Counted from the first letter of the stretch, positions 4,373-42,854 are shown. The stretch: DNA of 64,000 bases from Terriglobia bacterium (GCA_963664115.2 CAXWPJ010000006.1:224088-288087); one strand, 5' to 3'. Notes: generated from the letters alone by a model not told the origin. Numbers and translations are program-made.

Positions 4373-4385
4373 TCGTTATTTCGGA

Positions 4386-4421: not shown

Positions 4422-4693
4422 GACCGCCTCTGATACGACCCTTCTTGGATTCGCGTACCGCTTGAGTTATTTGCTCATTCGGGTGCGCGAATAATTTTTC
4501 TGAGTCGATTTCCCTTGCGATCCAAGCAATCATAGATAGATACCTGTGAATGCAGTATCGACATTGCCTGTTTTGTGATTCCGAAAGAGGAGAGGAGAGG
4601 AGAAGATGGGGAGATTTGGAGCCGGATGGAAGCCGGCCCCGAGGTTAATTTGCGCATTGCTCATGCTGGTTGTGGGTGCTGCGATCGTTTCGG

Positions 4694-6873: not shown

Positions 6874-6982
6874 TTGAGAAACTACAACGAGCCCTCTTTG
6901 GCAGCCCTTGAGACTTCTGCCACGGGCTGTTAGGCCTTGGGTTCCGTCCGAATTTTTCGATCCCATAGGGAGTTTCAAGAAT

Positions 6983-7892: not shown

Positions 7893-8264
7893 ATGCGATA
7901 CTTTTTTCCCGGTCTGATTTTAACCGGCCTCTGTTTGTCAGCTCTTCCCGGGTTTGCCCACCACGCGACGACAGCCTTCTACCATCAGGATCAGTGGGTG
8001 GAGATCGAGGGTGTCGTCCAGCAGTGGCTCTTCAGGAATCCGCATCCCGTCCTTTACGTCCAGGCTCCTGACGCGGATGGAGAGATCCGGGTGTTTGAGA
8101 TCGGTTTCGCCCCGGCAACTGTGTTGGCAAAGCGAGGGTGGAGTACGGAAACCTTTCAGGAGGGCGATGTCATTCAAGCGAGAGGGCACCCGTCCAAGGC
8201 GCCAGGGACCTATGGGTTAAGTGGAGCGGCGATCCGTCGGGAGGATGGCACCGAAGTCCGTTAG
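7893..8264 (+). CDS. Small secreted protein, His-His mature N-terminus family (copy 2)
   Basis: Signal peptide ..LSALPGFA, then HHATTAFY. WVEIEGVVQQWLFRNPHPVLYV and FAPATVLAKRGW are closely related to copy 1 at both protein and DNA level. Confidence 0.85.
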   Translation: MRYFFPGLILTGLCLSALPGFAHHATTAFYHQDQWVEIEGVVQQWLFRNPHPVLYVQAPDADGEIRVFEIGFAPATVLAKRGWSTETFQEGDVIQARGHPSKAPGTYGLSGAAIRREDGTEVR

Positions 8265-8391
8265 AGGGCTCCTGGAGGTTGTCGAAAGTCATAGTCCTTA
8301 GGTCTTGCGCCAACCCGTGTAAGTTGAATAAAATTGGCTGTTTCGAATAGCTACATCTGCATATAAATCACAATTGGGTATAAGGAGATTT

Positions 8392-9411
8392 ATGACTCGA
8401 ATCAGTGGAGCCTCATTGCTGCTCGTTATAGTCGGGCTGATGGCTCAACCGGTAGAAGCCCGTCCGGAATTCTTCATGCAGTTCCAGAGTGATCCGTTTC
8501 GGAACGTGGAGCTGGATACCTGCGGGGTTTGTCACGAGAATCCGGGAGGCGGCGGTCCTCGAAACGAATTCGGTCTGACCTTCGCTGAGGCAGGATTCCA
8601 GATCACGCCGATGATGAGGGCGAATTATCCGGACCGATTCACGGTCACAACGTTGGAAACCGGAAACACACCCACGATCTCGGAACCGAACGTTGTCTCC
8701 AAAATTTACTTGTCGGACCCGGACAATGAATTGATGGTTGTCGAGTTTCTTGCGATAGACGAGGCCAACGCTTTGCTGGAACCCACAATGCAGGTCGTGA
8801 GTCTGTTGGGCGGTGCGGTCGGGGGGGAAGATGACCAGACGCCGGAGAATTCGATGAGCTTCTTCATTACCAGTACAGGTCCCGGCGATGGGGCCAACCT
8901 GGGCGGGTTGGCCGGCGCGGACGCGCATTGCCAGTCACTTGCGGACGCCGCAGGGCATGCAGACAAGACCTGGCGCGCATACCTCAGCACGAGCTTTGAT
9001 GGAGAGCCCGCCCTCAACGCAGGCGACCGCGTCGGCGGCGGCCCCTGGTATAACGCCAATGGGCTTCTCGTTGCGCAGGGCGTGCTCGACTTGCACAGTG
9101 ACGGGAACCGGCTTAGTAAAATGGGCTCTCTGAATGAAAGAGGAGAAGTCGTCAACGGCAGGGGAGACGATCCCAACCGCCACGATATCCTTACAGGAAC
9201 CCTGTTAAACGGTATGGCGGCAGTCGACATGAATTGCAGCAATTGGACCAGCAATGGTGAGGGCAGCGCTCTGCTGGGTCACCATGACCGCGAAGGTGGG
9301 GGGGACAATGGTAGTTCCTGGAATTCAGCCCATGCTTCGAGAAGTTGCAGTCAGGCCGACTTGCAGGCGACCGGCGGCGACGGCCTGTTCTACTGCTTCG
9401 CTATCGACTAA
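8392..9411 (+). CDS. Secreted protein with an N-terminal CxxCH motif and a C-terminal endostatin/DUF1554-like (C-type-lectin-fold) domain
   Basis: ATG at 8392 preceded by AAGGAG. Signal peptide ..MAQPVEA. CGVCH at 8521-8535 is followed by NPGGGGPRNEFG. The C-terminal ~185 aa (FFITSTGPG..GGLAGADAHCQ..TWRAYLS..CSNWTS..LFYCFAID) resembles the collagen XV/XVIII endostatin sequence as I remember it. Confidence 0.8.
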   Translation: MTRISGASLLLVIVGLMAQPVEARPEFFMQFQSDPFRNVELDTCGVCHENPGGGGPRNEFGLTFAEAGFQITPMMRANYPDRFTVTTLETGNTPTISEPNVVSKIYLSDPDNELMVVEFLAIDEANALLEPTMQVVSLLGGAVGGEDDQTPENSMSFFITSTGPGDGANLGGLAGADAHCQSLADAAGHADKTWRAYLSTSFDGEPALNAGDRVGGGPWYNANGLLVAQGVLDLHSDGNRLSKMGSLNERGEVVNGRGDDPNRHDILTGTLLNGMAAVDMNCSNWTSNGEGSALLGHHDREGGGDNGSSWNSAHASRSCSQADLQATGGDGLFYCFAID

Positions 9412-11612: not shown

Positions 11613-11857
11613 TGAGTCCCTTTCGTTAAGTAATAATTCCGTGAGGGCTTCTAAAGGCGTAGTTTACGCCGCCTTTCGGAGTTGAGGCAACCGTCGGTCA
11701 CGCCCTTCAAATGGTTACTATCGACAGACTCCACTGTCCTTGTGATTGAATCATCCCTTCACGATTCCGTTATTGGATTTGCCGTATAGATCGTGCAGGA
11801 TAGCTTCAGATGCAGACGCCTGCCCAGTTTGTGACCAATCTGAAGGAGATTCGGCGG

Positions 11858-12979
11858 ATGAAAGGATTAGTCCTTTCGATTGCGTTGATAATGACCGCAT
11901 GGGTGCAATTCGGGCACACTGAACCCCAGACCCGCCAGCTGCCTCCACCCGGACTGCCCACCCCTGTGGCAGATGTGGCGGACCCTGTCACGAACATCAA
12001 AACACGACTTATCGAAGCCGCCACTCGGGGAGAAACTGCAGAGGTCGGGCAACTTCTTGAAGAAGGGGCCGACGTGAATACGATGAATCCCAGTGGTTTC
12101 ACCCTACTCCTTCTGACTGGTCTCGAAGGCCACGTCGATACGATGCGGCTACTGGCCGAGGCTGGTGCTGATCTGGAGGTCCGGGATGGCAACGGTGCGA
12201 CGGCGCTGATTCCACTGGTTGCCGAGGGCCGGATCGATTCACTCAGGGCATTGCTCGAGCTCGGGGCTGATGTCGATGCCGCTGATGACAACGGTGCGAC
12301 GGCTCTGATGGTGGCAGGTTTCCACGGTCTCTACGAAGTCGTTAAAGTCCTGCTCGCCGCTGGCGCCAGTGTCGATTCTGAAGACTTCAATGGGGCGACG
12401 CCGTTGTTGTGGGCGGCCTCGCGAGGCGAACAGCGCACAATCGAGCTCCTTCTCGACGGCGGATCCGATGTCAACCGGAAGGATGTCAACGGATGGACCG
12501 CATCCATGGTTGCGGCGATTCAGGGTCGCATCCAGGCTGTGGGGGTTCTGATTGATCGCGGCGCGGACCTGAGTATCCGAAACAACGGAGGGGGCACGGC
12601 GTTGATGGGGGCAGCCCTGGCAGGTCATGCCGATGTCCTCCAGATACTCCTGGATGCGGGGGGCGACGTCAACGCGGCTGACGCAGATGGTATTACAGCG
12701 TTGATGTGGGCTGCGTCGGAGGGACACATCGACGGTTTTGACAGACTGCTCCGTGGGGGTGCAGACGTCAACGCGGTTGCGGTTGATGGAGGGACGGCCT
12801 TGGTGATGACTGCATCCGGGGGGCATGCGGAAGTGGCTCGGCGCCTCCTCGATTCCGGAGCCGCCGTCGATTCCCGAACCACTAATGGGGGTGAGGCCCT
12901 TGCGGCGGCTCTGGCCGGTGGTTACACGGAGATTGTGGTCATGTTGCGGAGGGCCGGAGCCCGCCAACCCGCACGATAG
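11858..12979 (+). CDS. Secreted ankyrin-repeat protein
   Basis: ATG at 11858 preceded by AAGGAG. Signal peptide MKGLVLSIALIMTAWVQFG. About nine consecutive ankyrin repeats (NGATALM.AA..GH..VV..LL.AGA.V). Confidence 0.9.
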   Translation: MKGLVLSIALIMTAWVQFGHTEPQTRQLPPPGLPTPVADVADPVTNIKTRLIEAATRGETAEVGQLLEEGADVNTMNPSGFTLLLLTGLEGHVDTMRLLAEAGADLEVRDGNGATALIPLVAEGRIDSLRALLELGADVDAADDNGATALMVAGFHGLYEVVKVLLAAGASVDSEDFNGATPLLWAASRGEQRTIELLLDGGSDVNRKDVNGWTASMVAAIQGRIQAVGVLIDRGADLSIRNNGGGTALMGAALAGHADVLQILLDAGGDVNAADADGITALMWAASEGHIDGFDRLLRGGADVNAVAVDGGTALVMTASGGHAEVARRLLDSGAAVDSRTTNGGEALAAALAGGYTEIVVMLRRAGARQPAR

Positions 12980-13068: not shown

Positions 13069-14973
13069 ATGAGTATCCGATGGACGACGACCCTGGCCCT
13101 GGCAGCCGTGCTGATGGCCCCGGAAACCGGCATGGGCCGTGCGCAAAACACTGATTGGCCGATGTACAACCATGACCTGTACGGTACGCGCCATTCGCCG
13201 TTGAGCGAAATCAACACGGACAACGTCGGGGACCTCGCCCAGGCTTGGTCTTTCAATATAGGTCGGCTTGCCAGCTCGGGAGGTCTCACCGGAGGCTCTG
13301 AGGCGACACCCATCGTCGTAGACGGCGTGATGTTCCTGCCACTTGCCGATGCTGTCATTGCCCTGGACGCGGCGACAGGGGAGGAGATCTGGAAGTATCA
13401 GATGTCGATCGATGACCCGCCTTCCCGGCGCGGCGTTTCATACTGGGCGGGAAATAGCGACACTGCCGCACGGATCTACGTCACCTCAGGCCGCCAGCTC
13501 ATCGGGTTGAGCGCCTTCACCGGTGAGCCTACCGCGAATTTCGGTGACGGTGGCATTGTGGACATGGTCCAGGCTTACAACGGCGTACCCGCTGTATTTG
13601 AAAACCTGCTGCTCGTGGGGACCAACGGCGTTCCAGGTGCCGTCCGCACCATTGATGCTGTCACGGGAGACTTGGTTTGGGAGTTCCGTTCGGTTCCACA
13701 ACCCGGTGAGTTTGGAAACGACACATGGGAAGGAGACAGTTGGATGGACCGGACAGGCACCTACAGTTGGGCCTTTGCTCCGACCATGGACCCGGAACGC
13801 GGAATCTATTACGCAGTATTTGAGACCGCAGGGCCGATTGACTACTGGGGTGGAGACCGCATCGGCGACAACCTGTTTGCAGGTTCGATCGTTGCGCTGG
13901 ACATTCGAACGGGCGAAAGGCTGTGGCACTACCAGACCGTGCATCATGATCTCTGGGATTATGACCTGCCATCTTCGCCCACGTTGTTGGATGTGAACGT
14001 GGACGGAGAAATTGTTCCCGTCCTCGCGCAGACCGCTAAGACTGGTTACATGTACATTCTGAATCGTGTCACGGGAGAACCTGTCTTCGGGATTGAAGAA
14101 GTTCCCATGCCCCCGACCTCGGTTCCCGAAGATCAGGCTTCACTGACCCAACCGGTCCCGGTGAAACCGCCACCACTGGCTCGAGTGAGTTACAGTCCCG
14201 AAGACCTGGTGACGGCTGAGGACACCAATGCTGAACATGCCGCTTTCTGTGCGGAGTTGGTGGAGCGTAGCGGAGGCTTCTACAACGCCGGCCCGTTTAC
14301 GCCCTATGTGTTCCGTGAAGAAGGTGCGCCTCCTTATTCTACGGTTATCTTCCCCGGATCAGTGGGGGGCGCGAACTGGGGTGGAAACACGGCCGATCCG
14401 ACCTTGGGCTATGTCATCGTTAACACGATGAGCGAAGGCAGCTTTGGTTGGATCGAGAGAAGCCCTGAAGGCGAGCGCGTGCCCTACCGGCGGAACAGCA
14501 TTGTCGGACGGACTTCGCGCTTCCAGTGGTCCGACAACACGCCGGACTCGGGTGGGAACATCGTCGGAGCCGGTGAGATGGGGTGGCCCTGCCAGAAACC
14601 ACCCTGGGGTGAGTTGGTGGCTGTCGACGCTAACACGGGTGACATCGCCTGGAGGGTTCCTCTCGGCATCACGGAGGAACTTCCCCTCGAAAAGCAGCAG
14701 ACGGGACGCCTGAATTTCGGGGGCCCGATATCCACGGCCGGGGGTCTGGTGTTCATAGGCGCCAGCAATGACCGGCGCTTCCGCGCGTTCGATACCCGAA
14801 CGGGTGAAGAACTCTGGACCCAAGTTCTGGTGATGAGTGCCCACTCAGTTCCAATTTCCTATGCCGTTGACGGCAAGCAGTACGTGGCTGTTGTGGCGGG
14901 CGGCCAGCGCGGCGACGTCGACGACCCCGGCCCGGAAGGCGCCGAGGCCGTCGTTGTTTTTGCCCTGCCATAG
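13069..14973 (+). CDS. PQQ-dependent dehydrogenase (quinoprotein, beta-propeller), secreted
   Basis: 634 aa with a signal peptide. DWPMYNHDLYGTRHSPLSEI, repeated W-containing propeller motifs and HHDLWDYDLPS are typical of the glucose/quinate-type PQQ dehydrogenase family. Confidence 0.85.
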   Translation: MSIRWTTTLALAAVLMAPETGMGRAQNTDWPMYNHDLYGTRHSPLSEINTDNVGDLAQAWSFNIGRLASSGGLTGGSEATPIVVDGVMFLPLADAVIALDAATGEEIWKYQMSIDDPPSRRGVSYWAGNSDTAARIYVTSGRQLIGLSAFTGEPTANFGDGGIVDMVQAYNGVPAVFENLLLVGTNGVPGAVRTIDAVTGDLVWEFRSVPQPGEFGNDTWEGDSWMDRTGTYSWAFAPTMDPERGIYYAVFETAGPIDYWGGDRIGDNLFAGSIVALDIRTGERLWHYQTVHHDLWDYDLPSSPTLLDVNVDGEIVPVLAQTAKTGYMYILNRVTGEPVFGIEEVPMPPTSVPEDQASLTQPVPVKPPPLARVSYSPEDLVTAEDTNAEHAAFCAELVERSGGFYNAGPFTPYVFREEGAPPYSTVIFPGSVGGANWGGNTADPTLGYVIVNTMSEGSFGWIERSPEGERVPYRRNSIVGRTSRFQWSDNTPDSGGNIVGAGEMGWPCQKPPWGELVAVDANTGDIAWRVPLGITEELPLEKQQTGRLNFGGPISTAGGLVFIGASNDRRFRAFDTRTGEELWTQVLVMSAHSVPISYAVDGKQYVAVVAGGQRGDVDDPGPEGAEAVVVFALP

Positions 14974-27965: not shown

Positions 27966-28662
27966 CCGGCATGCTCGTCCGACTGAGACATTCAACGCAG
28001 ACGCTTCGGACGAACACCAACTCATCTGATTTGATGGACGGAAAGGGAAGCATCAACCCGGAGAATAAGGATCATGATGTGACCAAGGGGATTGGCATTT
28101 ATTGGGGCCCGTCCGGGTCGGGCGCCATCACTGCCATCGACGGGGAACTTGAATTCTTCCACCTCGTTGTCCAGCAGATACCGGGGTAGACGTCCATTTC
28201 CTGAGCGTTACGCCCCTACCCTTAAAGGCGAGCGGTTTGAAGCGGCCTGCGGACCCTGCCGGCTGCCTACCCCCATCTATGGTTTCTCCTAGCTTATTTC
28301 TCAAGAGGAGCCCTGCATTTTAATGACACTGTAAATTGTTATTTTCAAGATGTTTGCGGCGTTATTTGGCTAGTTTTATTGGGGTCGGAAGGTCAGGAAT
28401 CAAAGCAGGCACACCCATTGGAGCGGGCGCTCATCGAGCGCGCCTTCCGAATGCAGATCGCGATGGATTTTGAAAGGTGCTTCCACCACTCTTTCATCTC
28501 CAAATGGCCTGCTTAAGAGAGGCTAAGAGTCCCGGAAAGTAGAGGTTGACTCGCCCATTGCGGCGGTATAGCATTTCGCACTAAGTCTCGTCTCCTCACT
28601 GATAATGGGGGAGTTACGAGTGATTGAACCTTTTTCGTGTGTTTCGAGTGGAGGAAAACTCT

Positions 28663-31600
28663 ATGAAGCGACTAGTTACATGTCTTCTGGGTGTGGTCTT
28701 GATGACCGCGCTTGTATCCGTGCCAATGTTTGCGCAGGGTACAGCCCAGATTACAGGAACCATTTCAGACGCCACCGGCGCATTGTTGCCGGGCGTCGAT
28801 GTGTCTGTGACGAACACCGCGACGGGCGTGACCCGTGCGGTGGTCAGTAACGAAACCGGAGCCTATTCGTTGCAGAGCCTTCCGATTGGTGCCTACCAGT
28901 TGGAGGTGAGCTTGCCGGGCTTCCAGACCTTCGTGCAGACCGGCGTTTTGGCAGTCAATGACTCGGCCAATATCAATGTGAGCTTGCAGGTTGGCCAGGT
29001 GGCGCAGACCATCGAGGTTCAGGCCAATGCAGCCCTCGTTGAGACTCGTACGGTGGGTGTCGGCGAGCTCATTGAAAGCGCACGAATTCTGGAACTGCCC
29101 TTGAACGGCCGGAACGTGACCGAGTTGATCGTGCTCTCAGGTGCCGCGGTGTCGACGGGGACGTCGTCTTCGCGGAGCATGCCGGGGCAGCAGGAGATTT
29201 CGGTTGCGGGCAGCCAGCAGGGCGCTGTGGCCTACCTGTTGGACGGGGCACCCCACAACAACTGGTACGACAATCTGGCATTGCCGCTGCCGTTCCCGGA
29301 TGCGCTGGGTGAGTTCAAGATCGAAACCAGTGCGCTGCAGGCCCAGCAGGGACTGCGCTCGGGCGCGAACGTCAACGCCGTCACGCGCTCTGGAACGAAC
29401 GAGTTTCACGGCAACCTGTTCTGGTTCGTAAGGAATGACTTGTTCGGTGCCCGCGAGTATGGCGCCGCACGCAACAGTACGCTGAAGAGGAACCAGTACG
29501 GCGGGACCATCGGCGGACCGATCGCCCAGAACAAGCTGTTCTTCTTTACCGGCTACCAGGCCACGATCCAGCGGCGGGATCCCGGGACCACGGAACGTTA
29601 CCTTCCGACGCCCTATGCATTATCCACAGGCGACTGGAGCAAGATGTTGGACCCAGGATGCAGACCGCCGACTTCGAGTCTGTCCTCGACGCTCGAAAAT
29701 AGCACGACGGCGTCCGGCTATACCGGTGGCAACAAGATCGATCCGGCCTTGTACAGCCCGGTCGCGATGAATCTCATGAGTCGACTGCCGACCAACCTGA
29801 CCGACGACTGTGGCCGTCTCCTGTTCGGCAACATTTTGCAGGACAACGACTGGCAGTTGGTCAGCCGCGTGGACTATCAGATGTCCGATTCCCACTCCAT
29901 CCTGGGTCGTGTTCTGGTCACAACCGCGGATCGACCCAACCCGTATTCGATATCGGGCAATCCGCTGGCCAGCACCGTTGCTGGCTGGGATGACATGGCG
30001 CAGTCCATCACGTTGGGTGACACCTGGCTGATCAACCCGACAACGGTGTTGTCGACGCGTCTGGCGGTCAACTACAGCGAAATTTTACGTCTGGGCGCGG
30101 AATTCTTCAGCTGGGTCGATCTGGGCGTCAACAACTACTACACGTATCCCGACGTGGAGAAGTTCTTACGGATGGGCGCGGATGACGGCTTCTCGCTGGG
30201 CGGTTGTACGACCAATCCGGCGCCGTTTAAGACGTTCTCGGCCAGCATCAATTCCGACCTGAGTCTGTCCCGCGGCGACCACCAGTGGGGTTTGGGCGGA
30301 TATTTCAATCGGCTGGACTCCAACGGATACGCCAACTGTAACTCGGCCGGGAACTTCGACTTTGAAGGGAACCACACCGGCTGGGGCCTGGCCGACTTGA
30401 TGATCGGTCAGACGAATGACTTCACGCAGGCGACGCCGAACACGGCGCTGTCGAAGAAGTGGGTCGGCGCACTATATGTGGCCGACACCTGGCGCCTGAC
30501 GCCCAATGTGACGATGAGTTACGGCGTGCGTTGGGAGCCCGATTATCCCGAGACGATCACGAACGACCGCATCGTCAAGTTCTCCCGGGCTGCCTTTGAT
30601 GCCGGGACCAAGAGCTCGGTGTTCGTGAATGCGCCTGCGGGTATGTCCTTCGTGGGCGACTCCGGATTCCAGGGCACGAGCGGCCGGGACACGTTCGTTG
30701 CGAATTTCGCACCGCGGGTCGGTCTGGCATGGGACCTGTTCGGCGATGGCCGGACTTCGATCCGTGCATCCGGCGGGATCGGTTATGACTATCCCGACGG
30801 GCAGTTCCATCTGTGGACCTCCCTGACGCCGCCGTTCGGCGCGGACGTGAGGATTCCGAATGCGACCCTGGCCGATCCCTGGGCGACATTCCCCGGTGGG
30901 CGGACCCATCCGGTGAACACCACCGATCCCAACATCGGGTTCCCGCGGTTCCCGCGCATGTCGGCGATAGGAGATAACCTCCGGTCGTCGCAGACACAGA
31001 ACTGGAACCTGGCCCTGCAGCAGCAGGTCGGGGGCGACTGGCTGATGTCGACGACGTACATGGGCAGCCACACCATCAACATGGCGGGGGCCACCCAGAT
31101 GAACCCGGCGATTTACTTCCCGGGTGCGCCGGTGGACGGAGCGTGTACGGTCAGCCATTCCGGGGGGGTTATGATCCCGGCCGGAACTTACACGCTGAAC
31201 ACAGGCGGAGGCAGTTGCTCCACGAACGGCAATGTCAACAATCGGCGGATCCTGTCCCTGGTGGACGCCGCTAACGGACTCAATTATGGAGCTCTTGGCC
31301 TCACGCACAGCGGCGGGACGTCCAGCTACAACGGGCTGCTCGTCAGCATGCAGCGGCGCGCCGCTACAGGCATCAATATCAACACCAACTACACGTGGTC
31401 TCACTGCATCTCTCCGTATCACGATGATGGATTTGGCGGGACGGGTTTCAATGGAGACAACGTGTATCACGACCCGGACAACCGGGGCCGCAGCCGCGGG
31501 AACTGCCAGCAGGACCGGCGTCACAACTTCACGTTCACGACCATCGCCCGCTCGCCTGAGTTTGCCAATGCCGGCCTCCGGGCGGTCGCTTCGGACTGGG

Positions 31601-32043
31601 GTTTGTCGGTGATCTACCGCGCGAACTCGGGCAGCTATCTGAACATTCGGAGCGGTTCCCGGGATCTTGCGCGCAACGGCGTGAACCCGGGTAACCAGCT
31701 CGTGAACTACAACGGTGGCACGACGACCGGGGACGACGGGCCGGACGGGCAGTACCTGGTCCCGGCAGCGTTCTCGAACGCTGCGAAGGGCACATTCGGC
31801 AACCTGGGCCGTCGCAGCGTCCGGGGACCGAAGCAGTGGGATTTCGACGTCGCGCTGGCCCGGACGTTCAATCTGGGTGAGACCGAGACGCTGGAATTCC
31901 GGCTCGAGGCCTATAACCTGACGAACAGTTACCGTCCAGGCAGCCCGGAAGCCCGCGTGGGCCGCAGGAACTTTGGTGTGACTCGGGCTTTGGGTGCCGA
32001 CGATCCCCGGGTTCTGCAGTTCGCTCTGAAGTTGGGCTTCTAA
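28663..32043 (+). CDS. TonB-dependent receptor with an N-terminal carboxypeptidase-regulatory-like domain
   Basis: ATG at 28663 preceded by GAGGAAA. Signal peptide ..VPMFAQG. GTISDATGALLPGVDVSVTNTATGVTRAVVSNETGAYSLQSLPIGAYQLEVSLPGFQ is the CarbopepD_reg-like domain. A plug region follows, and the protein ends in the C-terminal aromatic residue (..FALKLGF). Confidence 0.9.
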   Translation: MKRLVTCLLGVVLMTALVSVPMFAQGTAQITGTISDATGALLPGVDVSVTNTATGVTRAVVSNETGAYSLQSLPIGAYQLEVSLPGFQTFVQTGVLAVNDSANINVSLQVGQVAQTIEVQANAALVETRTVGVGELIESARILELPLNGRNVTELIVLSGAAVSTGTSSSRSMPGQQEISVAGSQQGAVAYLLDGAPHNNWYDNLALPLPFPDALGEFKIETSALQAQQGLRSGANVNAVTRSGTNEFHGNLFWFVRNDLFGAREYGAARNSTLKRNQYGGTIGGPIAQNKLFFFTGYQATIQRRDPGTTERYLPTPYALSTGDWSKMLDPGCRPPTSSLSSTLENSTTASGYTGGNKIDPALYSPVAMNLMSRLPTNLTDDCGRLLFGNILQDNDWQLVSRVDYQMSDSHSILGRVLVTTADRPNPYSISGNPLASTVAGWDDMAQSITLGDTWLINPTTVLSTRLAVNYSEILRLGAEFFSWVDLGVNNYYTYPDVEKFLRMGADDGFSLGGCTTNPAPFKTFSASINSDLSLSRGDHQWGLGGYFNRLDSNGYANCNSAGNFDFEGNHTGWGLADLMIGQTNDFTQATPNTALSKKWVGALYVADTWRLTPNVTMSYGVRWEPDYPETITNDRIVKFSRAAFDAGTKSSVFVNAPAGMSFVGDSGFQGTSGRDTFVANFAPRVGLAWDLFGDGRTSIRASGGIGYDYPDGQFHLWTSLTPPFGADVRIPNATLADPWATFPGGRTHPVNTTDPNIGFPRFPRMSAIGDNLRSSQTQNWNLALQQQVGGDWLMSTTYMGSHTINMAGATQMNPAIYFPGAPVDGACTVSHSGGVMIPAGTYTLNTGGGSCSTNGNVNNRRILSLVDAANGLNYGALGLTHSGGTSSYNGLLVSMQRRAATGININTNYTWSHCISPYHDDGFGGTGFNGDNVYHDPDNRGRSRGNCQQDRRHNFTFTTIARSPEFANAGLRAVASDWGLSVIYRANSGSYLNIRSGSRDLARNGVNPGNQLVNYNGGTTTGDDGPDGQYLVPAAFSNAAKGTFGNLGRRSVRGPKQWDFDVALARTFNLGETETLEFRLEAYNLTNSYRPGSPEARVGRRNFGVTRALGADDPRVLQFALKLGF

Positions 32044-32325: not shown

Positions 32326-33189
32326 ATGCGTTTTTGTCGTTTTGGAGAGGACCGTCTCGGTCTGGTCGAAGGTTCCCAGGTGCGGGATGTCACTGCGGCG
32401 CTCGATGTATTGCCCGATTACCGGTATCCACTGCCCGTAGTCGATCAGTTCATCGTAAATCTCGACAAGGTTTCGGCAAAGGCAAAGGCCATTGCCGCGG
32501 ATGCACCTCTCCTGGATCTGGCAGGGCTGAAGCTCCTGAGCCCTGTGGCGAATCCCAGCAAGATCGTCGGTGCGCCCGTTAACTACCAGAAACATATCGA
32601 CGAAGCCAAAGCCGATGCCGGTATTAATTCTGGGAACCCGGCCAACCTGGCCCCGATCCAAAAGATCGGCCTGTTTCTGAAGGCCTGTAGCGCGCTGGTG
32701 GGGCCGGGCGAGGGCATCGGTTTGCGAAAACTGGACCGCCGTAACGATCACGAAGTGGAGTTGGCCGTGGTGATGGGAAAAGCGGCGAACAGTGTGGCAG
32801 CGGCGGATGCGCTCGATTACGTCGCCGGTTATGCTATTGGCCTCGACCTTACGATTCGGGGTCCGGAAGAACGTTGCCTCAGGAAATCTCCCGACAGCTA
32901 CGCCGTTCTGGGTCCGTGGATCGTGACTGCGGACGAGATCGATGACCCGAACAACCTCGACCTGAAGCTTACGGTCAACGGTGAAGTCCGACAGGATTCC
33001 AATACGAAGCTCATGATCCTCAACGTGCGCCAGCTTATCGAGTACGCGTCGTCTTTCTACACGCTGCAGCCCGGCGACATCATTATTACAGGGACGCCGG
33101 AAGGGGTCAGTCCTATCGTGCCGGGAGACACGATCGTTGCGACTATAGAAAAGATCGGATCCATGGAAGTTGCCGTGCGGGCCGCGTGA
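32326..33189 (+). CDS. Fumarylacetoacetate hydrolase (FAH) family protein
   Basis: 287 aa. HEVELAVVMGK, GPWIVTADEIDDPNNLDLKLTVNGEVRQDSNT and GDIIITGTPEGV are FAH-family signatures. Confidence 0.9.
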   Translation: MRFCRFGEDRLGLVEGSQVRDVTAALDVLPDYRYPLPVVDQFIVNLDKVSAKAKAIAADAPLLDLAGLKLLSPVANPSKIVGAPVNYQKHIDEAKADAGINSGNPANLAPIQKIGLFLKACSALVGPGEGIGLRKLDRRNDHEVELAVVMGKAANSVAAADALDYVAGYAIGLDLTIRGPEERCLRKSPDSYAVLGPWIVTADEIDDPNNLDLKLTVNGEVRQDSNTKLMILNVRQLIEYASSFYTLQPGDIIITGTPEGVSPIVPGDTIVATIEKIGSMEVAVRAA

Positions 33190-33242
33190 TGAAAACAGGA
33201 CACTTGTCAGCGGGACCTCTACGTGTCGGAGGGGTGTAAAAC

Positions 33243-34328
33243 GTGAAGGAATCGAAAGAACTCAAGGCCCAGGCCTTTTCCTTTCAGAAGCCTGAAGCGA
33301 CAGAGGAACTGAAGGATTTCTACGACAGGCTGGGGGCCAGAAACATTGTGCCACTGTGGGAAATTCTCGGGGATGTACTAACAGCGTCGCCCACGACTCC
33401 CTGTGTGCCGGCCATATGGCGTTTCGACGACATCCGGCCCCTCCTGATGGAAGCCGGAGACTTGATCACGACGGAGGAAGCCGAACGCCGCGTCCTGTCG
33501 TTGCAGAATCCCGGGCTGAATGGTCAGCCGTGGATCACGACGAGCCTGTATGCCGCTCTCCAGTTGGTCCAGCCGGGTGAAATTGCTCAGTCCCATCGTC
33601 ACACCGCATCGGCCCTGCGATTCGTACTGGAGAACGGTGACGGTGGATACACATCGGTCGACGGCGAAAAAAGCACGATGCAGCCGGGTGATTTTGTTCT
33701 CACGCCTTCCTGGACGTTCCATGATCACGGAAATCCCGGAGACAAACCTATCATCTGGATGGACGGTCTGGATGTTCCGATTATCAATATGCTGGGTGTT
33801 AATTTCGCGGAGACCTGGCCCGAGCTGACCTATCCGGTGACCAAGACCGAGGGCGACGCCCTGACACGCTTCGGGAACAACCTTCTCCCTGTCGAATACA
33901 AGTCGTCATCTATGGCAGCGCCGATTTTTAACTACCCCTATTCACGGAGTCGCGAAGTACTTGAGCAGCTCTATAAGAACGGTCCGGTCCATGAGTGTCA
34001 CGGCGTGAAGTTGCAGTATGTGAATCCAGCTACCGGAGGGTACCCGATGCCGTCGATCGCAGGATTCATTCAGTTGCTGCCGCCCGGGTTCAAAGGAGAA
34101 GCGTACCGGTCGACCGATGGTACGGTATATTGCCCGACCGAAGGCAGCGGGCGGACGACAATTGGCAACCATACCTACGAGTGGAAGGAGCACGACGTCT
34201 TCGTTGTTCCGACATGGTATCGGGTGACCCATGAAACTGAAGAGGGCGCAGTCCTGTTCAGTTTCTCGGACCGCGCGGCGCAGAAGGCCCTGGGTTTGTG
34301 GAGAGAAGAAGCCCCGATTCTCGCTTGA
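33243..34328 (+). CDS. Gentisate 1,2-dioxygenase (bicupin)
   Basis: 361 aa. FYDRLGARNIVPLWE, HRHTASALRFVLENGDGGYTSVDGEKSTMQPGDFVLTPSWTFHDHGN is the characteristic cupin/His region of gentisate dioxygenases. Confidence 0.85.
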   Translation: MKESKELKAQAFSFQKPEATEELKDFYDRLGARNIVPLWEILGDVLTASPTTPCVPAIWRFDDIRPLLMEAGDLITTEEAERRVLSLQNPGLNGQPWITTSLYAALQLVQPGEIAQSHRHTASALRFVLENGDGGYTSVDGEKSTMQPGDFVLTPSWTFHDHGNPGDKPIIWMDGLDVPIINMLGVNFAETWPELTYPVTKTEGDALTRFGNNLLPVEYKSSSMAAPIFNYPYSRSREVLEQLYKNGPVHECHGVKLQYVNPATGGYPMPSIAGFIQLLPPGFKGEAYRSTDGTVYCPTEGSGRTTIGNHTYEWKEHDVFVVPTWYRVTHETEEGAVLFSFSDRAAQKALGLWREEAPILA

Positions 34329-34518
34329 CGGTCATTCGAACCCTACCGTGTTCCGGCCTTACCTTCAGGGCCACTCGTGTAACGAGTTCGAATCACCTCA
34401 CGACTCTTGAATGTCGGATGTCATGGGACTAGGCTTAATTCAGCGGCACACGACACCGCCACTTCGTGTGCGGAGTCAATAGAGTCACAGGGACAGTCTC
34501 TGATTTGAGGGGGAACTC

Positions 34519-34914
34519 ATGAAATCTAAAATTCTTGTTCTGCTTGTCGCTGGAATATTGGTATCGGGCGTGGCGGCCTATGCCCACCACTCCTTCACAG
34601 CGACTTACGATGAAGATGGATTGGTCGAGATTGAAGGGGAGTTGGTGCAGTTCCTTTTCCGCAATCCCCACTCCTGGGTCCATGTGATGGCTCCGGATGA
34701 AAATGGCGATTTGGTTCGCTACGGCGTCGAATGGGGTGGAGCCGGCCAGTTGGCGGGCGGCGGCGTGACCCGGTCTACGCTGAGGCCTGGCGACCACGTC
34801 ATTATTAGCGGTAACCCGGGGCGCAATCCTGCGGATCATAGAATCCGGATGCGGAGTCTCCGGAGGACGTCCGACAATTTTGGTTGGGGATTTGAAGGCG
34901 AAGACTTCGACTAG
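34519..34914 (+). CDS. Small secreted protein, His-His mature N-terminus family (copy 3)
   Basis: Signal peptide ..SGVAAYA, then HHSFTATYDEDGLVEIEGELVQFLFRNPHSWVHV. The mature part differs from copy 4 at only three residues. Confidence 0.9.
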   Translation: MKSKILVLLVAGILVSGVAAYAHHSFTATYDEDGLVEIEGELVQFLFRNPHSWVHVMAPDENGDLVRYGVEWGGAGQLAGGGVTRSTLRPGDHVIISGNPGRNPADHRIRMRSLRRTSDNFGWGFEGEDFD

Positions 34915-35321: not shown

Positions 35322-36254
35322 ATGGATAAAGTCAGCCAGGCCAGGATTGTCGCTCCAGCGCTTCTGCTGGGTGCAATGCTGATTGTCGTGCCCGCCTTTG
35401 CGCAGACGGATTTGTCCGGCGAATGGAGGGTTGTCAGAAGTGAAGACAACTTTCACAATCCTTACAACGGAGATACGGGAGGCCTTCCGATGAACGCATC
35501 CGCGTTCAGGAGAGCCGACAGTTGGGACGCCTCGATCCAGTCACTGCCCGAATGGCAGTGTCGTCCCCACTCGGGCGCGTACATCACACGCGGTCCTTCA
35601 GCTCTGAAAATTTTCAAGCAAGTCGATCCTGTATCCCGGGAAATCGTTGCGTTCCATACCGAATGGTTGCGTTCAATCGACAATCCAATCTGGATGGACG
35701 GACGCGGGCATCCCTCAGAGTTAGCGCCGCATACCTGGTCGGGCTTCTCAACCGGCGAGTGGCAGGGCGATGTGCTCAAAGTGACGACGACGCATATGAA
35801 AGAGGATTATGTCCGGCGGAATGGCCCGCCTCAGGGCGACCGAACCACTATGACCGAATACCTGAGCCTCCGGTCGGTTGGGAATGAGGACTTTCTGTCC
35901 TGGACCAAGGTCGTATACGACCCCGACTACCTGACTGAGCCGCTCGTCCGAACAACGGAGTATATTCGGCGCCCGAACGCCCAAGTACCGCCTTATCCGT
36001 GTACGATCGTCACGGAAGTGGACCGGCCCAAAGGCTATGTGCCGAGCTGGTTCCCGGGTGAGAATCCGCATCTTGGAGAGCACGAAGAACACCTCGGTAT
36101 ACCCGCCGAAGCCAGCCGGCAGGGAGCCATCACGATGTATCCTGAGTTTCGGCAGGTCATCAAAGAGAACGGCTGGGAAGCGCGCCGCTTCGAATCAAAC
36201 ACGCCGGCGTTCGAGCAGCAACAAAATCAGCCGGCACCGCCGCAGCAACGATAG
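35322..36254 (+). CDS. Secreted partner protein of unknown function (copy 2)
   Basis: Signal peptide ..VVPAFAQ. TDLSGEWRV, PIWMDGRGHP, GFSTGEWQGDVLKVTTTH, YDPDYLTEP and PYPC are collinear with the genes at 6983 and 38128. GGAGGA RBS. Confidence 0.85.
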   Translation: MDKVSQARIVAPALLLGAMLIVVPAFAQTDLSGEWRVVRSEDNFHNPYNGDTGGLPMNASAFRRADSWDASIQSLPEWQCRPHSGAYITRGPSALKIFKQVDPVSREIVAFHTEWLRSIDNPIWMDGRGHPSELAPHTWSGFSTGEWQGDVLKVTTTHMKEDYVRRNGPPQGDRTTMTEYLSLRSVGNEDFLSWTKVVYDPDYLTEPLVRTTEYIRRPNAQVPPYPCTIVTEVDRPKGYVPSWFPGENPHLGEHEEHLGIPAEASRQGAITMYPEFRQVIKENGWEARRFESNTPAFEQQQNQPAPPQQR

Positions 36255-36360
36255 TTACTATGGGGCTGGCAGAATGCGGTGAGTCCCGAAAGGTTTCGAA
36301 AGCCTGCGGAACTTTCTATTTCGGGAACAACTCTTGTAATACAGTAGGTTGGAGTCATCG

Positions 36361-37485
36361 ATGAGGATAATCACCTTGAAAACCTCTGCCGGTTTGCGTA
36401 TCGCGCTGATGTGCGCTGCCCTCACTCTGCTCGCAGGAGCTGGCCTGGTGGAACGTGCACCGGCCCAGCAGAACGCCGAAATAGAAGTCGTCCATGTGCA
36501 AGGCAACATCTGGTTGTTTGGAGGAGTCGGTGGCAACGTCGTTGCTTCCCTCGGCCCTGACGGCGTCCTGTTAGTGGATGCTGGCCTCGAACCACGGGCG
36601 CCGGCATTGTTAGACGCGATCGGGGAACTGCAACGGGTACTCGATTTTGGGAGCGCACCGGCCCCCGCACGTTTCGGGGGAGCGGAGGGTTTGAAGACGA
36701 CGCCGACCTACACCCGCGCGCCGCCGAAACCGATTCGTTACATCATGAACACCCACTACCACCCGGATCACACGGGCGGCAATCAAACGCTTGCCGCTTC
36801 CGGAATAACCTACGCGGGGGGTAACGTTGCGGGCAGCATCAACGACGCGGATTTCGGTGCTGCGGTCTACGCGCATGAAAATACGCTCTTCCACATGGTG
36901 GATATGGACGTTCCGTTCCGCGGCCTGCCGACGGACACGTACTACAAAGAATTCTATAAACTCAGCCACTTCTTCAACGGCGAGGGCGTGCGTTTGGTTC
37001 ACCAGCCGAATGCCCATACCGATGGCGACAGCCTCGTGCACTTCCCGCGATCCGACGTCATCGTTGCGGGAGATATTTTTTTGACGACGAGCTATCCGAT
37101 CATCGATGTGGACCATGGGGGGCATGTCAACGGTATCGTCGACTCCTTGAACTACATACTCGACCTGGCCATCGCATCATTCAGAATGGAAGGAGGCACC
37201 TTGATCGTTCCCGGTCATGGAAGAATCAGCGATTCGGCCGACGTCGGCTACTATCGGGATATGGTGACGATCCTCAGGGACCATATTCAAATTATGATAA
37301 GCCGGGGCATGTCGCTCGAAGAAATAAAGGCAGCACAACCCACGCTGGGTTACGATGGCCGCTATGGCTCGGACACGGGTTTTTGGACGACTGACGACTT
37401 TGTTGAGGCTGTGTACCGGAACCTGACCGAAACCCCGGGGCCGATCCTGTATCCGGGATTAGCACCATACCCTTCGACGTTCTGA
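36361..37485 (+). CDS. Secreted MBL-fold metallo-hydrolase
   Basis: Signal peptide followed by the beta-lactamase-fold pattern, including NTHYHPDHTGGN (HxHxDH) and later His/Asp ligands (HTDGD, PGHG). Confidence 0.85.
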   Translation: MRIITLKTSAGLRIALMCAALTLLAGAGLVERAPAQQNAEIEVVHVQGNIWLFGGVGGNVVASLGPDGVLLVDAGLEPRAPALLDAIGELQRVLDFGSAPAPARFGGAEGLKTTPTYTRAPPKPIRYIMNTHYHPDHTGGNQTLAASGITYAGGNVAGSINDADFGAAVYAHENTLFHMVDMDVPFRGLPTDTYYKEFYKLSHFFNGEGVRLVHQPNAHTDGDSLVHFPRSDVIVAGDIFLTTSYPIIDVDHGGHVNGIVDSLNYILDLAIASFRMEGGTLIVPGHGRISDSADVGYYRDMVTILRDHIQIMISRGMSLEEIKAAQPTLGYDGRYGSDTGFWTTDDFVEAVYRNLTETPGPILYPGLAPYPSTF

Positions 37486-37610
37486 CGATGATTTGAGAAA
37501 TGTCGACCAATCGATGTTTCAATGAGCAGATAAACTGAATACAGAATATTACGGATAACTCACTTTTAATTTTATGTAAGAGACCGCCATTGTTTTAGGA
37601 GGAAGACCCG

Positions 37611-38006
37611 ATGAAGTTCAAACTGATCGCCCTTGCGCTTGCTGCCATGTTGGTGTCGGGTGTGGCTGCCTACGCTCACCATTCGTTCACCGCAACCTAC
37701 GATGAAGATGAATTGGTCGAGATCGAAGGGGAGTTGGTGCAGTTCCTTTTCCGCAATCCGCACTCCTGGGTCCATGTGATGGCTCCAGATGAAAATGGCG
37801 AGATCGTTCGCTACGGGGTCGAATGGGGTGGAGCCGGCCAGTTGGCGGGCGGGGGTGTGACCCGCTCCACGCTGAGACCCGGCGACCACGTCATTATTAG
37901 CGGTAACCCGGGGCGCAATCCTGCGGATCATAGAATCCGGATGCGAAGTCTTCGACGGACATCTGACAATTTTGGATGGGGATTTGAAGGCGAGGACTTC
38001 GACTAG
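37611..38006 (+). CDS. Small secreted protein, His-His mature N-terminus family (copy 4)
   Basis: Near-duplicate of 34519-34914. The signal peptides diverge, the mature parts are almost identical, and the DNA differs mostly at third codon positions. Confidence 0.9.
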   Translation: MKFKLIALALAAMLVSGVAAYAHHSFTATYDEDELVEIEGELVQFLFRNPHSWVHVMAPDENGEIVRYGVEWGGAGQLAGGGVTRSTLRPGDHVIISGNPGRNPADHRIRMRSLRRTSDNFGWGFEGEDFD

Positions 38007-38127
38007 TTTTAGAGATCTTGATCAACATCTTTCTGGATAAAGTAGAGATGAGAGGGCGATGGGCCCCCCGTGGAATTATGCCCGCCGCTCGGGTGCCGGA
38101 GGATGCCCGAGTGCCGGAGGAGAAAGA

Positions 38128-38922
38128 ATGATTCACAGAGTCCCACCAAAGACCGCTCTGTTGGCGTTGGCGGTTGTGGTGGTCATTGCACTTGTTGCGG
38201 GAGTGCCGGATGCATCGGCCCAGACAGGCGGCGGTGAGGCGCCACAGAGTGCGAGAGACGCGGCCCCGATCGATCTCGGAGGGTACTGGGTGTCTTTGGT
38301 CAACGAGGATTGGCGTCATCGTATGTTCACGGCGCAGGTTGGTGATTACGATCTCGTGCGTCTAAATGCCGATGGTCGCCGTATGGCGGACGCCTGGGTC
38401 CAAGAGGCGTCGCCGACGGGAGACGACTGTCTAATGACCTATGGTGCGGCGGGTATCATGCGCTTGCCTGGCCGGTTGCACATCGATTGGGCCGACGACA
38501 ACACACTGCAAGTCGACCTGGATGCCGGAACTCAGACCCGGCAGTTCTTTTTCGGAGAATCCGAATCGCCAGGTGGGCAACCGACCCGGCAAGGCTATTC
38601 CGTAGCTCGGTGGGAGACCTCCGGCGGCTCGGGGCGAGGCGGCGTGTCCATGAACGACATTCCATTGGGCGGACACCTGAAGGTGGTGACAACCAACCTT
38701 TCGGCCGGGTATCTCTTCAAGAACGGAATCCCGTATAGTAGCGACGCAGTGATGACCGAGTTTTTTGTCCCCATCGTGGAACCGGATGGTAGTCAGTACG
38801 TCTTGGTTCAGACCTTTGTTCAGGATCCGACTTATCAGACCCAGACCTTCGTGCGGACGCTGACCTTCAAGAAGGAATCCGACGGTCGGAACTGGAATCC
38901 GACGCCCTGTACTGAGTACTAA
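38128..38922 (+). CDS. Secreted partner protein of unknown function (copy 3)
   Basis: ATG at 38128 preceded by GGAGGA. Signal peptide ..VPDASAQ. IDLGGYWVS, GYSVARWE, LKVVTTNL, QDPTYQTQ and TPC are collinear with the genes at 6983 and 35322. Confidence 0.8.
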   Translation: MIHRVPPKTALLALAVVVVIALVAGVPDASAQTGGGEAPQSARDAAPIDLGGYWVSLVNEDWRHRMFTAQVGDYDLVRLNADGRRMADAWVQEASPTGDDCLMTYGAAGIMRLPGRLHIDWADDNTLQVDLDAGTQTRQFFFGESESPGGQPTRQGYSVARWETSGGSGRGGVSMNDIPLGGHLKVVTTNLSAGYLFKNGIPYSSDAVMTEFFVPIVEPDGSQYVLVQTFVQDPTYQTQTFVRTLTFKKESDGRNWNPTPCTEY

Positions 38923-39089: not shown

Positions 39090-39581
39090 ATGGATTTTTT
39101 GCTGTGGCTTGAAACGACTTCTCTCGGAACGTGGGTGCGCGAGTCGCCCTCCTTGTGGGCTTATCCCAGCGTTCTGTTCCTTCACTCGGTTGGCCTCGCA
39201 TCCCTCGTAGGTATCAACGCCGCAGTTGACTTGCGCGTCCTCGGCTTTGCAAAGGGCATCCCTTTAAAGCCGCTTTCGCAGATGATCCCGCTGATGTGGG
39301 TCGGTTTTGGAGTGAACGCTGTTTCGGGGCTGATGCTCATTCTGGCCAGCGCGTCGACATTACTGCTGAACCCGACTTTCTGGGTGAAGATGTTATTCGT
39401 CACGGCGGCTGTGGTAACCATATGGCTGATGGACAAACGGGTGTTTGCCAACGCAGACGAGGGGGCCATACCCATGGAAAGCAAGGTCCTGGCGGGGGTC
39501 TCGCTCTTCTGTTGGACTGGAGCCATGGTATCGGGCCGGTTGATTGCTTACCTGGGTCCGGAAGCAGGGTTCCTGGTTTAA
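39090..39581 (+). CDS. Hypothetical integral membrane protein (about four TM segments)
   Basis: 163 aa, strongly hydrophobic with four helix-length stretches. No family recognised with confidence. Confidence 0.6.
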   Translation: MDFLLWLETTSLGTWVRESPSLWAYPSVLFLHSVGLASLVGINAAVDLRVLGFAKGIPLKPLSQMIPLMWVGFGVNAVSGLMLILASASTLLLNPTFWVKMLFVTAAVVTIWLMDKRVFANADEGAIPMESKVLAGVSLFCWTGAMVSGRLIAYLGPEAGFLV

Positions 39582-41165: not shown

Positions 41166-42854
41166 CTACCGGCACTCGAAGTTGCTTGCGACCCAATTGG
41201 CTCTATCGTTCTGCCCGCCCGCCGGACCGGCATATGTGGCCAGTTCGGGATAAGGGCAGATCTTGCGCTGATTGTCCACGACACCATCGGTGAGATGCTC
41301 TCCCACGAGGTAGTCGGGCGCGTTACCGTTTTCTACCCAGTCCCTCAGGGGAGCCAAACGGTCAAACGATTCGAGTCCGGGACCCCCACCACAGTGGCTC
41401 ATGCCAGGCACCATGAAGAAGCGTGCTTTTTCACGAGCGGCGTCCAGGTTCCCGCCGAAGGTTTCAGAAACTACGGATCGGTAATAATCCAGAGTCGGTT
41501 GCAGCTGCACTTCTGAATCACCCCACCCGTGCAACAAGAGAAGTTTGCCGTTTTCGCGGTTCAGGAAACGGTTCAAATCCGGATCCTTAGCATCCGTAAT
41601 CGACATCATGAAGTCGGCCTTTCCAGCCGTGAGGTCGTCGATGTCGAACTCCCACCAGGCAAACTCCGGAGGCGTGGCCGTTTTGTCCGGGACCTGGGTG
41701 ATGTCGTTCCGAATTGGCATCGGAACGCCTGGAGATTCTTCGTAGAACAGATAGTTGACGTGATCGAGTCCGTATATGAGCCGGAACGGCGTCATGTTGT
41801 TGCCTTCGTGGGCGTACACGTTGCGGCTCCAACCGTATTCGGAACCCAAAGCCAGGCCCTTGGTGATCTGAACCCCGCTGCTGTCGACCGGTCCCCGATA
41901 GAAATCTTTGATGGTTTGAAGTTGGGGCCGGGTGATGCAATCGTCCGCATCGACGCCTGCCGGACACATCCACTCGGCCAGATCGCGGTCCGGATCAAAG
42001 TTGCAGCTCGACGGGTCGGCCAGCAGGCCGTCGCTTATGCCGTCGAGGGCATCGCATTGGTCGATGACTGTGTCCCTCAATATTTCTGATTTCGTCAGGC
42101 TTTCGGGAATCCCATCGCCGTCGGTGTCAAAGGCCAGGTTGGCGGCGAAGTTGTCCTTGAAGACTTGCTGAGCCATCCAGACATGGCCGGCGTTGAGTGT
42201 TTGGTAGTCATAGACGGGCGCCTCCGCGACGATACCGTCGAAATCGGCCGGATACCGCTGGGCTTCCATGAGCCCTTGCCGTCCGCCCGTGGAGCAACCC
42301 TCAAAATAGGAGTATTCGGGCGCACGGTTGTAATAGCGACGGACCGCGGTTTTCGAAGCACTGGCCGTCAGGTGAATGGCACGATAGCCGAAATCGATGA
42401 CGGAGGGCATATCTTCACTACCGAACGACGCACCCGGATGGGTTCCCGCGTCATGGCCGGTATTCGAGTTCGCCACGGCGTATCCTTCCGCCAGTCGGTG
42501 ATCCGCCCAGTCCAAATCCCCATCCTTGCCGCCGTCTCCGATGTTGAGCAGCCTTCCGTTCCAGTTCGCCTGGAGTGGAAGTTGCATATGGAAGCGGATC
42601 CTTCCGGAGATGATGCCCTGGATATAGCAGTACTCGGGTGTCTCTCCTGAAGCGGGTACGAGCATCGCCTGTGTTAGCGTCAGGTCCAGGGCGCGGAGCA
42701 TGGACGCACACATAGCCGCATCTTGCGGAGACGCTTGAACACTCTGGCCGGCCACTGCGGGCGTTGCCAGGACCAAAATCGAAGCCACTGCGATCGCACC
42801 TAAAGTCGCCAGGTACTTGAACACTTCCAAAGTCCTCCTGTTACTCGTCCACAC
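41166..42854 (-). CDS. Tannase/feruloyl esterase family alpha/beta hydrolase, secreted
   Basis: 562 aa with a signal peptide. The GCSTGGRQGLMEAQRYPADFDGIVAEAPV nucleophile region and conserved Cys pairs are typical of the tannase/feruloyl esterase family. Confidence 0.9.
   Translation of the reverse strand: MWTSNRRTLEVFKYLATLGAIAVASILVLATPAVAGQSVQASPQDAAMCASMLRALDLTLTQAMLVPASGETPEYCYIQGIISGRIRFHMQLPLQANWNGRLLNIGDGGKDGDLDWADHRLAEGYAVANSNTGHDAGTHPGASFGSEDMPSVIDFGYRAIHLTASASKTAVRRYYNRAPEYSYFEGCSTGGRQGLMEAQRYPADFDGIVAEAPVYDYQTLNAGHVWMAQQVFKDNFAANLAFDTDGDGIPESLTKSEILRDTVIDQCDALDGISDGLLADPSSCNFDPDRDLAEWMCPAGVDADDCITRPQLQTIKDFYRGPVDSSGVQITKGLALGSEYGWSRNVYAHEGNNMTPFRLIYGLDHVNYLFYEESPGVPMPIRNDITQVPDKTATPPEFAWWEFDIDDLTAGKADFMMSITDAKDPDLNRFLNRENGKLLLLHGWGDSEVQLQPTLDYYRSVVSETFGGNLDAAREKARFFMVPGMSHCGGGPGLESFDRLAPLRDWVENGNAPDYLVGEHLTDGVVDNQRKICPYPELATYAGPAGGQNDRANWVASNFECR

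Follow-up and report, generated by a model that had tools for sequence, protein, structure and literature searches.

The DUF6152 family carries a conserved, predicted mature His-His N-terminus that may form a metal site on an OB-type fold and is linked to a secreted partner family

We identify four small proteins encoded in the window (the whole 64,000-nucleotide stretch of DNA that was analysed) as plain members of the family DUF6152 (PF19649), i.e., periplasmic or secreted proteins of about 110 residues with a predicted OB fold, whose mature chains are expected to begin with two adjacent histidines. From the alignments we conclude that this His-His (HH) terminus is a selected and functional feature, on which selection is very strong throughout a family of great size. 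The genes are linked to those of a second secreted family, here called PART, and we give somewhat better than even credence to the putative reading that DUF6152 carries an N-terminal-histidine metal site on an OB scaffold and acts with PART in periplasmic substrate processing. DUF6152 is one of the larger families without a function and is common in soil Acidobacteriota and Gammaproteobacteria. Its four genes in the window are the following.

6481-6873, plus strand: DUF6152 paralogue of the second subfamily, 130 aa; HH codons 6565-6570
7893-8264, plus strand: DUF6152 paralogue of the second subfamily, 123 aa; HH codons 7959-7964
34519-34914, plus strand: DUF6152 paralogue, 131 aa, 92% identical to the 37611 copy; HH codons 34585-34590
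37611-38006, plus strand: DUF6152 paralogue, 131-aa ORF (PF19649, E 3.8e-21); predicted signal peptide 37611-37676, His1-His2 codons 37677-37682, codon of the invariant His29 (F-R-N-P-H) 37761-37763

The initial annotation had described four ORFs with these starts, each encoding an AxA-type cleavage site followed by HH; all four are present on the plus strand, and the junctions AYA-HHSF (37611 and 34519), AAA-HHSQ (6481) and GFA-HHAT (7893) match those it quoted exactly. All four pre-sequences are of Sec type: a basic n-region leads into a hydrophobic core, and the c-region has the small-x-small pattern. The 37611 gene is preceded by a Shine-Dalgarno sequence (AGGAGG) 8 nt 5' of its ATG, and for the 6481 gene, whose mechanically called ORF begins at an upstream TTG (6382), the length of 130 aa is counted from the ATG, the same start as in an identical database protein (P0133).

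Family membership is direct: the four ORFs match PF19649 with 64.2-75.4 bits (E 1e-17 to 4e-21; gathering threshold 27 bits), the match spanning the end of the signal peptide, the HH pair and the OB core, and the homologues are likewise assigned to PF19649 in precomputed annotation. A profile built from the four paralogues finds 11,360 clusters (50% identity) at E<=1e-3 and 3,932 at E<=1e-10. The closest genomic relatives are MAGs labelled as Terriglobia/Acidobacteriota, Vicinamibacterales and Gammaproteobacteria, including Ca. Rariloculaceae, and the window is syntenic with Terriglobia-labelled MAG contigs at 82-86% nucleotide identity. No NCBIfam model matches the four proteins, a TIGR03943 match (E about 0.05; 13 bits against a cut-off of 89 bits) having been dismissed as noise, and a sequence search of the PDB with the DUF6152 family profile gave nothing significant. 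Our literature searches found no publication mentioning DUF6152 or PF19649, and none on an OB-fold protein with an N-terminal histidine in the periplasm.

Comparing the four paralogues with each other, the identity to the 37611 protein is 92% for the 34519 copy and 34/35% for the other two, which divides them into two subfamilies (37611 with 34519, and 6481 with 7893), and the blocks HH, VEIEG and LFRNPH are invariant in all four. In the close pair, the mature part differs by 23 synonymous and three non-synonymous codons and the signal peptide by seven synonymous and eight non-synonymous codons, with 35% of the signal-peptide nucleotides differing and unrelated flanks, so that purifying selection begins at the predicted cleavage site; the pair seems to stem from a duplication long ago, maintained by strong purifying selection, rather than from a recent gene conversion. 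Antisense ORFs of 119 and 134 aa overlap these two close genes on the minus strand (37572-37931 and 34435-34839), and an antisense ORF of the same cluster recurs in 39 loci; we interpret these as a probable by-product of sense-gene conservation and not as real genes. Because the four paralogues are homologous, their HH termini are not four independent events, and a family-wide test was needed.

In this test, which covered the 295 homologues with an intact N-terminal region, HH stands exactly 28 residues before the histidine of an x-P-H motif in 285 sequences. The spacing is likewise fixed in 118 of 123 representatives, and remote homologues found among the neighbouring genes (E 1e-10 to 1e-36) carry the same Ala-His-His junction and P-H at identical spacing, for example ...AAA-HHGGDVEWAD...FQFPH. 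In the 76-sequence alignment, which includes both subfamilies, the invariant columns are H1, H2, G18, F25, N27, P28, H29, G60, G69, G76 and P78, which makes one more invariant histidine, His29 in mature numbering, a candidate for a second or third ligand. The alignable conserved region starts exactly at HH, while upstream of it both length and sequence vary freely.

The residues around this boundary also bear on cleavage. Residue -1 is Ala in 265 of 287 homologues, while a further 20 have Gly or Ser there, residue -3 is A, V, L, G, S, T or I in 283 of 287, and mature position 3 is Ser in 242 and Ala in 38 of the same 287. The -3/-1 signal-peptidase rule is satisfied directly before HH in 95.3% of the 295 homologues, and the pre-sequence, of variable length (mode 22 aa), has an n-region with a median charge of +2, a strongly hydrophobic core and almost no charged residues in its last 15 positions. 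We therefore infer that signal peptidase I (SPase I) probably cleaves just before HH. Accordingly, the mature His-His N-terminus that the initial annotation had predicted for these secreted proteins is upheld by the family-wide pattern, and its argument that a conserved HH is a functional HH gains force from the 285 homologues with the pair in its canonical position. His is residue 1 in only about 2.6% of the signal-peptide-cleaved proteins of the SignalP 6.0 training set (PMC12537917), and the selection on HH across the family matches what would be expected of a functional N-terminal chelator, which is the premise of that same study.

AlphaFold2, run on the mature 37611 protein with the 76-sequence alignment, gave a model with a mean pLDDT of 88.3 and a pTM of 0.80. 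Its topology (beta1 14-24; a loop with F-R-N-P-H29; beta2 31-37; beta3 43-49; a helix 53-58; beta4 71-79; beta5 86-94) identifies the fold class, as modelled, as a classic OB fold of five strands and a helix. Residues 1-3 (HHS) have a pLDDT below 50 and are hence unplaced. His2 and His29 are invariant candidates for the second His ligand; the fixed 28-residue spacing argues that the N-terminal segment may be structurally constrained relative to the beta1-beta2 loop. Among the best 50 Foldseek matches in the PDB there are only generic OB domains (E about 1e-3, TM 0.5-0.57), including SSB/Rim1, the anticodon-binding domain of LysRS, Stn1 and ExoVII, and none of CopC, YcnI, LPMO, DUF4198, CusF or TIMP is found in this top 50.

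The mechanism that we propose would begin with Sec export, after which SPase I would cut behind A-x-A and leave His as residue 1 and His as residue 2. The free alpha-amine and one or both imidazoles of His1 and His2 would then most likely form a transition-metal site, which the invariant His29 of the beta1-beta2 loop (F-R-N-P-H) probably completes. The resulting chelate would resemble a histidine brace or the GHK type (NH2-X-His) and would be borne by a fold to which no site of this kind has been assigned before. Metal binding and the ligand set of DUF6152 are thus put forward as probable features of the mature chain. DUF6152 would work with PART, the genes being usually adjacent and sometimes fused, in periplasmic modules that also include a metal-dependent hydrolase of the metallo-beta-lactamase (MBL) or amidohydrolase type and that lie beside TonB-type receptors and gentisate-pathway genes. 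The genes of the window that are relevant to this proposal are listed below.

6908-7837, plus strand: PART paralogue, at most 309 aa, start codon uncertain, between the 6481 and 7893 DUF6152 genes
28624-32043, plus strand: TonB-type outer-membrane barrel, upstream of the 34519 DUF6152 gene
32326-33189, plus strand: FAA-family hydrolase, upstream context
33243-34328, plus strand: cupin of the gentisate-dioxygenase type, upstream context
35322-36254, plus strand: PART paralogue, 310 aa, downstream of the 34519 DUF6152 gene; no Pfam match
36349-37485, plus strand: secreted metallo-beta-lactamase-fold hydrolase (MBL) with HxHxDH (PF00753, E 9e-17), between PART and the 37611 DUF6152 gene
38128-38922, plus strand: PART, 264 aa from the ATG at 38128, with a GGAGGAG Shine-Dalgarno sequence, directly downstream of the 37611 DUF6152 gene

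Every DUF6152 gene of the window adjoins a PART gene (260-310 aa), and the PART genes are homologous to each other (35322-36254 against 38059-38922, E 3e-10, and against 6908-7837, E 4e-13). Pfam and NCBIfam scans give no match for PART, a sequence search of the PDB with the PART profile gave nothing significant, and its 2172 homologues at E<=1e-3 are labelled 'hypothetical protein' or left unnamed, none with a functional label. The invariant alignment columns of PART are Trp, Gly and Cys positions, without a conserved His. A PART model (pLDDT 80) is an antiparallel beta-barrel, for which Foldseek returned weak avidin/streptavidin matches (E 5e-3, TMq 0.28) that support the assignment as an antiparallel barrel and nothing beyond it.

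The gene linkage between DUF6152 and PART extends to the related loci, where counts were made from HMM domain matches around 120 DUF6152 genes; single-linkage clustering of ORFs was dropped because read-through ORFs merged MBL, DUF6152 and PART into one cluster (cluster 0). A same-strand PART gene lies within 400 bp of 55 of the 120 DUF6152 genes and somewhere in the locus for 81 of them, and about one third of the DUF6152 genes have no PART within 6 kb. Natural DUF6152-PART fusions that keep both the signal peptide and the Ala-His-His junction (377 aa at 3402-4535 in locus L081, and P0273) provide Rosetta-stone evidence for a joint action of DUF6152 and PART. Fusions in the order PART to DUF6152 that lack HH (P0258 and P0291), together with a number of long 'DUF6152' proteins, give the impression of frameshifts or chimeras in the metagenome calls and were set aside. 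The linkage is strong but not obligatory, as seen in a close relative of the window, the Terriglobia MAG locus L002, syntenic with the window at 31-47 kb, in which both DUF6152 genes stand side by side without the PART-MBL segment between them and without the downstream PART; this difference is a naturally occurring polymorphism in which the partner genes were deleted or inserted.

The typical order in the first subfamily is PART-MBL-DUF6152-PART, and an MBL homologue occurs in 39 of 80 related loci and is no more than 3 kb away from 49 of the 120 DUF6152 genes. The MBL of the window (36349-37485) has weak matches, below the cut-off, to SoxH-related 'quinoprotein relay' metallohydrolase models of NCBIfam. 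Loci of the distant second subfamily read PART-DUF6152-amidohydrolase-PART-DUF6152, with the amidohydrolase in the place of the MBL. The TonB-type barrel, the FAA hydrolase and the gentisate-type cupin recur beside DUF6152 and PART in unrelated loci, and further recurrent neighbours are TonB-dependent or OMP_b-brl_4 receptors, GST, tannase/feruloyl esterase, PQQ dehydrogenases and SBF-type transporters. The window itself is a catabolic island that includes a PQQ dehydrogenase, the FAA hydrolase with the gentisate-dioxygenase-like cupin, and a tannase/feruloyl esterase (13069-14973, 32326-34328, 41166-42854), and the same families surround DUF6152 and PART in other phyla. Genes for CopA, CopC, CopD/YcnJ, multicopper oxidases, Cus, Nik or Znu were not seen in the window and about 90 loci, nor were metal transporters, regulators or chaperones seen in the neighbourhoods, with one exception, a fragment of an RND pump that recurs in 5 of 80 loci and, read by eye from its sequence, seems heavy-metal-efflux-like. 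This context points away from copper homeostasis and suggests instead a periplasmic module in which aromatic substrates are processed after import.

Several other features of the window lie close to these genes. A DUF6644 membrane protein (39090-39581) follows the DUF6152-PART pair directly and is conserved there in 4 of 80 loci, all of them the closest relatives. Just downstream of the 7893 gene, a secreted protein of 345 aa (8374-9411) has a haem-c-type CxxCH motif (C-G-V-C-H) near its N-terminus and a sub-threshold match to DUF1554; a faint DUF1554 protein is also encoded a few genes downstream of DUF6152 in locus L087. Immediately upstream of the first DUF6152-PART-DUF6152 cluster there are two transposase genes (1099-2631 and 4757-6043; DDE_Tnp_1_4 and Mutator family), which suggests that this cluster sits at a mobile or rearranged spot, and bacterial ankyrin-repeat proteins of 479 and 389 aa (2933-4372 and 11810-12979), unusual for a catabolic region, flank it.

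For the joint role of DUF6152 and PART, a metal-dependent catalytic or accessory unit could be the first choice, followed by a metal relay to the Zn-type hydrolase and then by a regulator reaching into the metal site of the hydrolase, all three being putative. A bolder form of the first, to which we assign a small probability, is a hitherto unrecognised two-component periplasmic metalloprotein in which a brace-like centre of His-His and His29 on the OB-fold subunit is combined with the calycin- or avidin-like barrel of PART, which would present a hydrophobic aromatic substrate. The two together would carry out, or gate, the oxidation or hydrolysis of plant- or lignin-derived aromatics on their way from TonB-type receptors to the gentisate pathway; if true, catalytic histidine-brace enzymes would gain a new class beyond LPMOs and pMMO.

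The hydrolase neighbours allow for a different emphasis, namely that DUF6152 is a periplasmic metal relay or buffer, most plausibly for Zn, which loads the adjacent MBL or amidohydrolase with HH and His29 as the transfer site. Two unrelated metal-dependent hydrolase superfamilies indeed recur beside DUF6152, the MBL at the frequencies given above and the amidohydrolases in the distant subfamily, and a His-rich N-terminus is known from the periplasmic Zn protein ZinT. However, the linkage to PART, which lacks a conserved His, is both tighter and more general, many DUF6152 genes have no hydrolase nearby, and Zn-uptake or Zur-type genes were not seen in the neighbourhoods, so we regard the relay as unlikely, if still worth weighing.

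The unplaced N-terminal tail of the monomer model, the adjacency to and fusion with PART, and the adjacency to Zn hydrolases would also suit a contact element, in which HH is not a free metal site and instead docks into PART or reaches into the active-site metal of the hydrolase, in the latter case as an inhibitor or regulator comparable to TIMPs, which likewise combine an OB fold with a functionally critical free N-terminus. The structural searches placed no TIMP among the top matches, there are two DUF6152 genes per hydrolase while many loci are hydrolase-free, and the fixed 28-residue spacing between HH and an invariant His of the same chain suggests an intramolecular site; a docking role for HH seems to us rather improbable.

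The initial annotation had favoured a periplasmic copper chaperone or homeostasis protein of the CopC/YcnI type with a canonical Cu histidine brace, and had likened the proteins to CopC, YcnI and LPMOs. Of this likeness the N-terminal His after cleavage stands, and only that. Additional conserved His residues would fit a copper brace, and in general chemistry both NH2-His and NH2-X-His termini are strong Cu(II) chelators, but a Pfam scan at E<=0.1 returned only DUF6152 and sub-threshold noise, with no LPMO, CopC (PF04234) or YcnI (DUF1775) domain, and the predicted fold is an OB fold and not a beta-sandwich or cupredoxin. Homology to CusF was rejected at an hhalign probability of 1.8%, and no CopD, YcnJ, CopA or multicopper-oxidase neighbour was seen in the window and about 90 loci. 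Four copies per 64 kb in catabolic clusters are likewise unlike the pattern of homeostasis genes, and N-terminal His proteins can prefer Ni, as does DUF4198 (PMC12537917); copper is no more than a candidate metal here. DUF6152 is therefore not a relative of CopC, YcnI or LPMOs and does not belong to a copper-homeostasis operon, and a copper brace of this type appears very unlikely to us. Least probable of all is a signal-peptidase cut elsewhere, e.g., after S-F-T five residues further on, with HH conserved for another cause, since the +5 offset passes the permissive -3/-1 rule in 76% of homologues (offsets +1 to +4 in <2%) but would use Thr at -1, which is disfavoured and rare in real sites, against Ala at -1 before HH in 92%, would remove from the mature chain the two residues that the family conserves most, and disregards that alignable conservation begins exactly at HH.

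Returning to the reading that we favour, a metal site on an OB scaffold that acts with PART, its interest lies in the place of N-terminal-histidine metal sites in biology, where LPMOs, pMMO, CopC and the 'anglerases', a recent addition, all rely on them. To our knowledge, every characterised site of this kind sits on a sandwich-type fold. If the reading holds, DUF6152 would put an N-terminal-His metal site on an OB fold and would represent a secreted binder with a new partner and a new context. The pairing and fusion with PART, together with the metallo-hydrolase and aromatic-catabolism neighbours, provides a handle on the function of two dark families, and could lead either to a metal relay of a new kind in the periplasm or to an oxidative catalyst, likewise new, that bears on the turnover of lignin and tannin.

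Among the known systems, TIMPs offer an analogy. They have an OB fold whose N-terminal residue ligates the protease zinc, and they carry Cys1 and disulfides. The N-domain of TIMPs and DUF6152 may be alike in the OB fold, in a critical free N-terminus after signal cleavage and in the zinc hydrolases that adjoin DUF6152, whereas DUF6152 has neither Cys1 nor the disulfides and shows no sequence or specific structural match to TIMP. CusF, a periplasmic OB-fold chaperone for Cu(I)/Ag(I), is also a small periplasmic OB fold with a His near the mature N-terminus; DUF6152 differs from it in that it lacks a Met-rich Cu(I) site and its genes do not neighbour CusCBA.

Termini of the NH2-His (brace) and NH2-X-His (GHK-type) kinds are strong chelators of Cu(II) and Ni(II). 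The DUF6152 terminus is not of the ATCUN type (NH2-X-X-His), having Ser or Ala at position 3, and it conforms to NH2-X-His with a His at predicted mature position 2 in 285 of the 295 homologues. With the LPMOs (AA9/AA10), CopC and PmoB, and with the mono-histidine-brace proteins YcnI and Ang-1, DUF6152 shares secretion, a conserved His as the (here predicted) first mature residue and further conserved His residues. A histidine brace is defined by the N-terminal amine and the pi-N of the first His together with the tau-N of a second His in a T-shaped N3 arrangement (PMC10952591), and the chelation expected for DUF6152 would likewise use the alpha-amine and an imidazole. DUF6152 differs from the brace proteins in that its second His follows directly at position 2, in its predicted OB fold, where LPMO, CopC and YcnI have an Ig-like, FnIII or cupredoxin sandwich, and in its loci, which have no copper-handling partners, whereas the CopC and YcnI systems have CopD and YcnJ.

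The closest parallel in approach is the signal-strapping study, in which a conserved N-terminal His after cleavage predicted metal binding in four out of four families tested, namely DUF4198 (Ni), DUF6702, and Ang-1 and Ang-2 (Cu), with the metal preference set by the geometry of the additional ligands, e.g., the facial N3 site of DUF4198 for Ni (PMC12537917). DUF6152 is not among these four characterised families, and it differs from them in its modelled OB fold, the structures of DUF4198 and Ang-1 being beta-sandwich or Ig-like, and in its catabolic context of gentisate-pathway genes and hydrolases instead of Ni/Co transport or HupE/UreJ permeases. What it has in common with them is that it is a DUF family with a conserved His right after the signal peptide and with TonB receptors often near.
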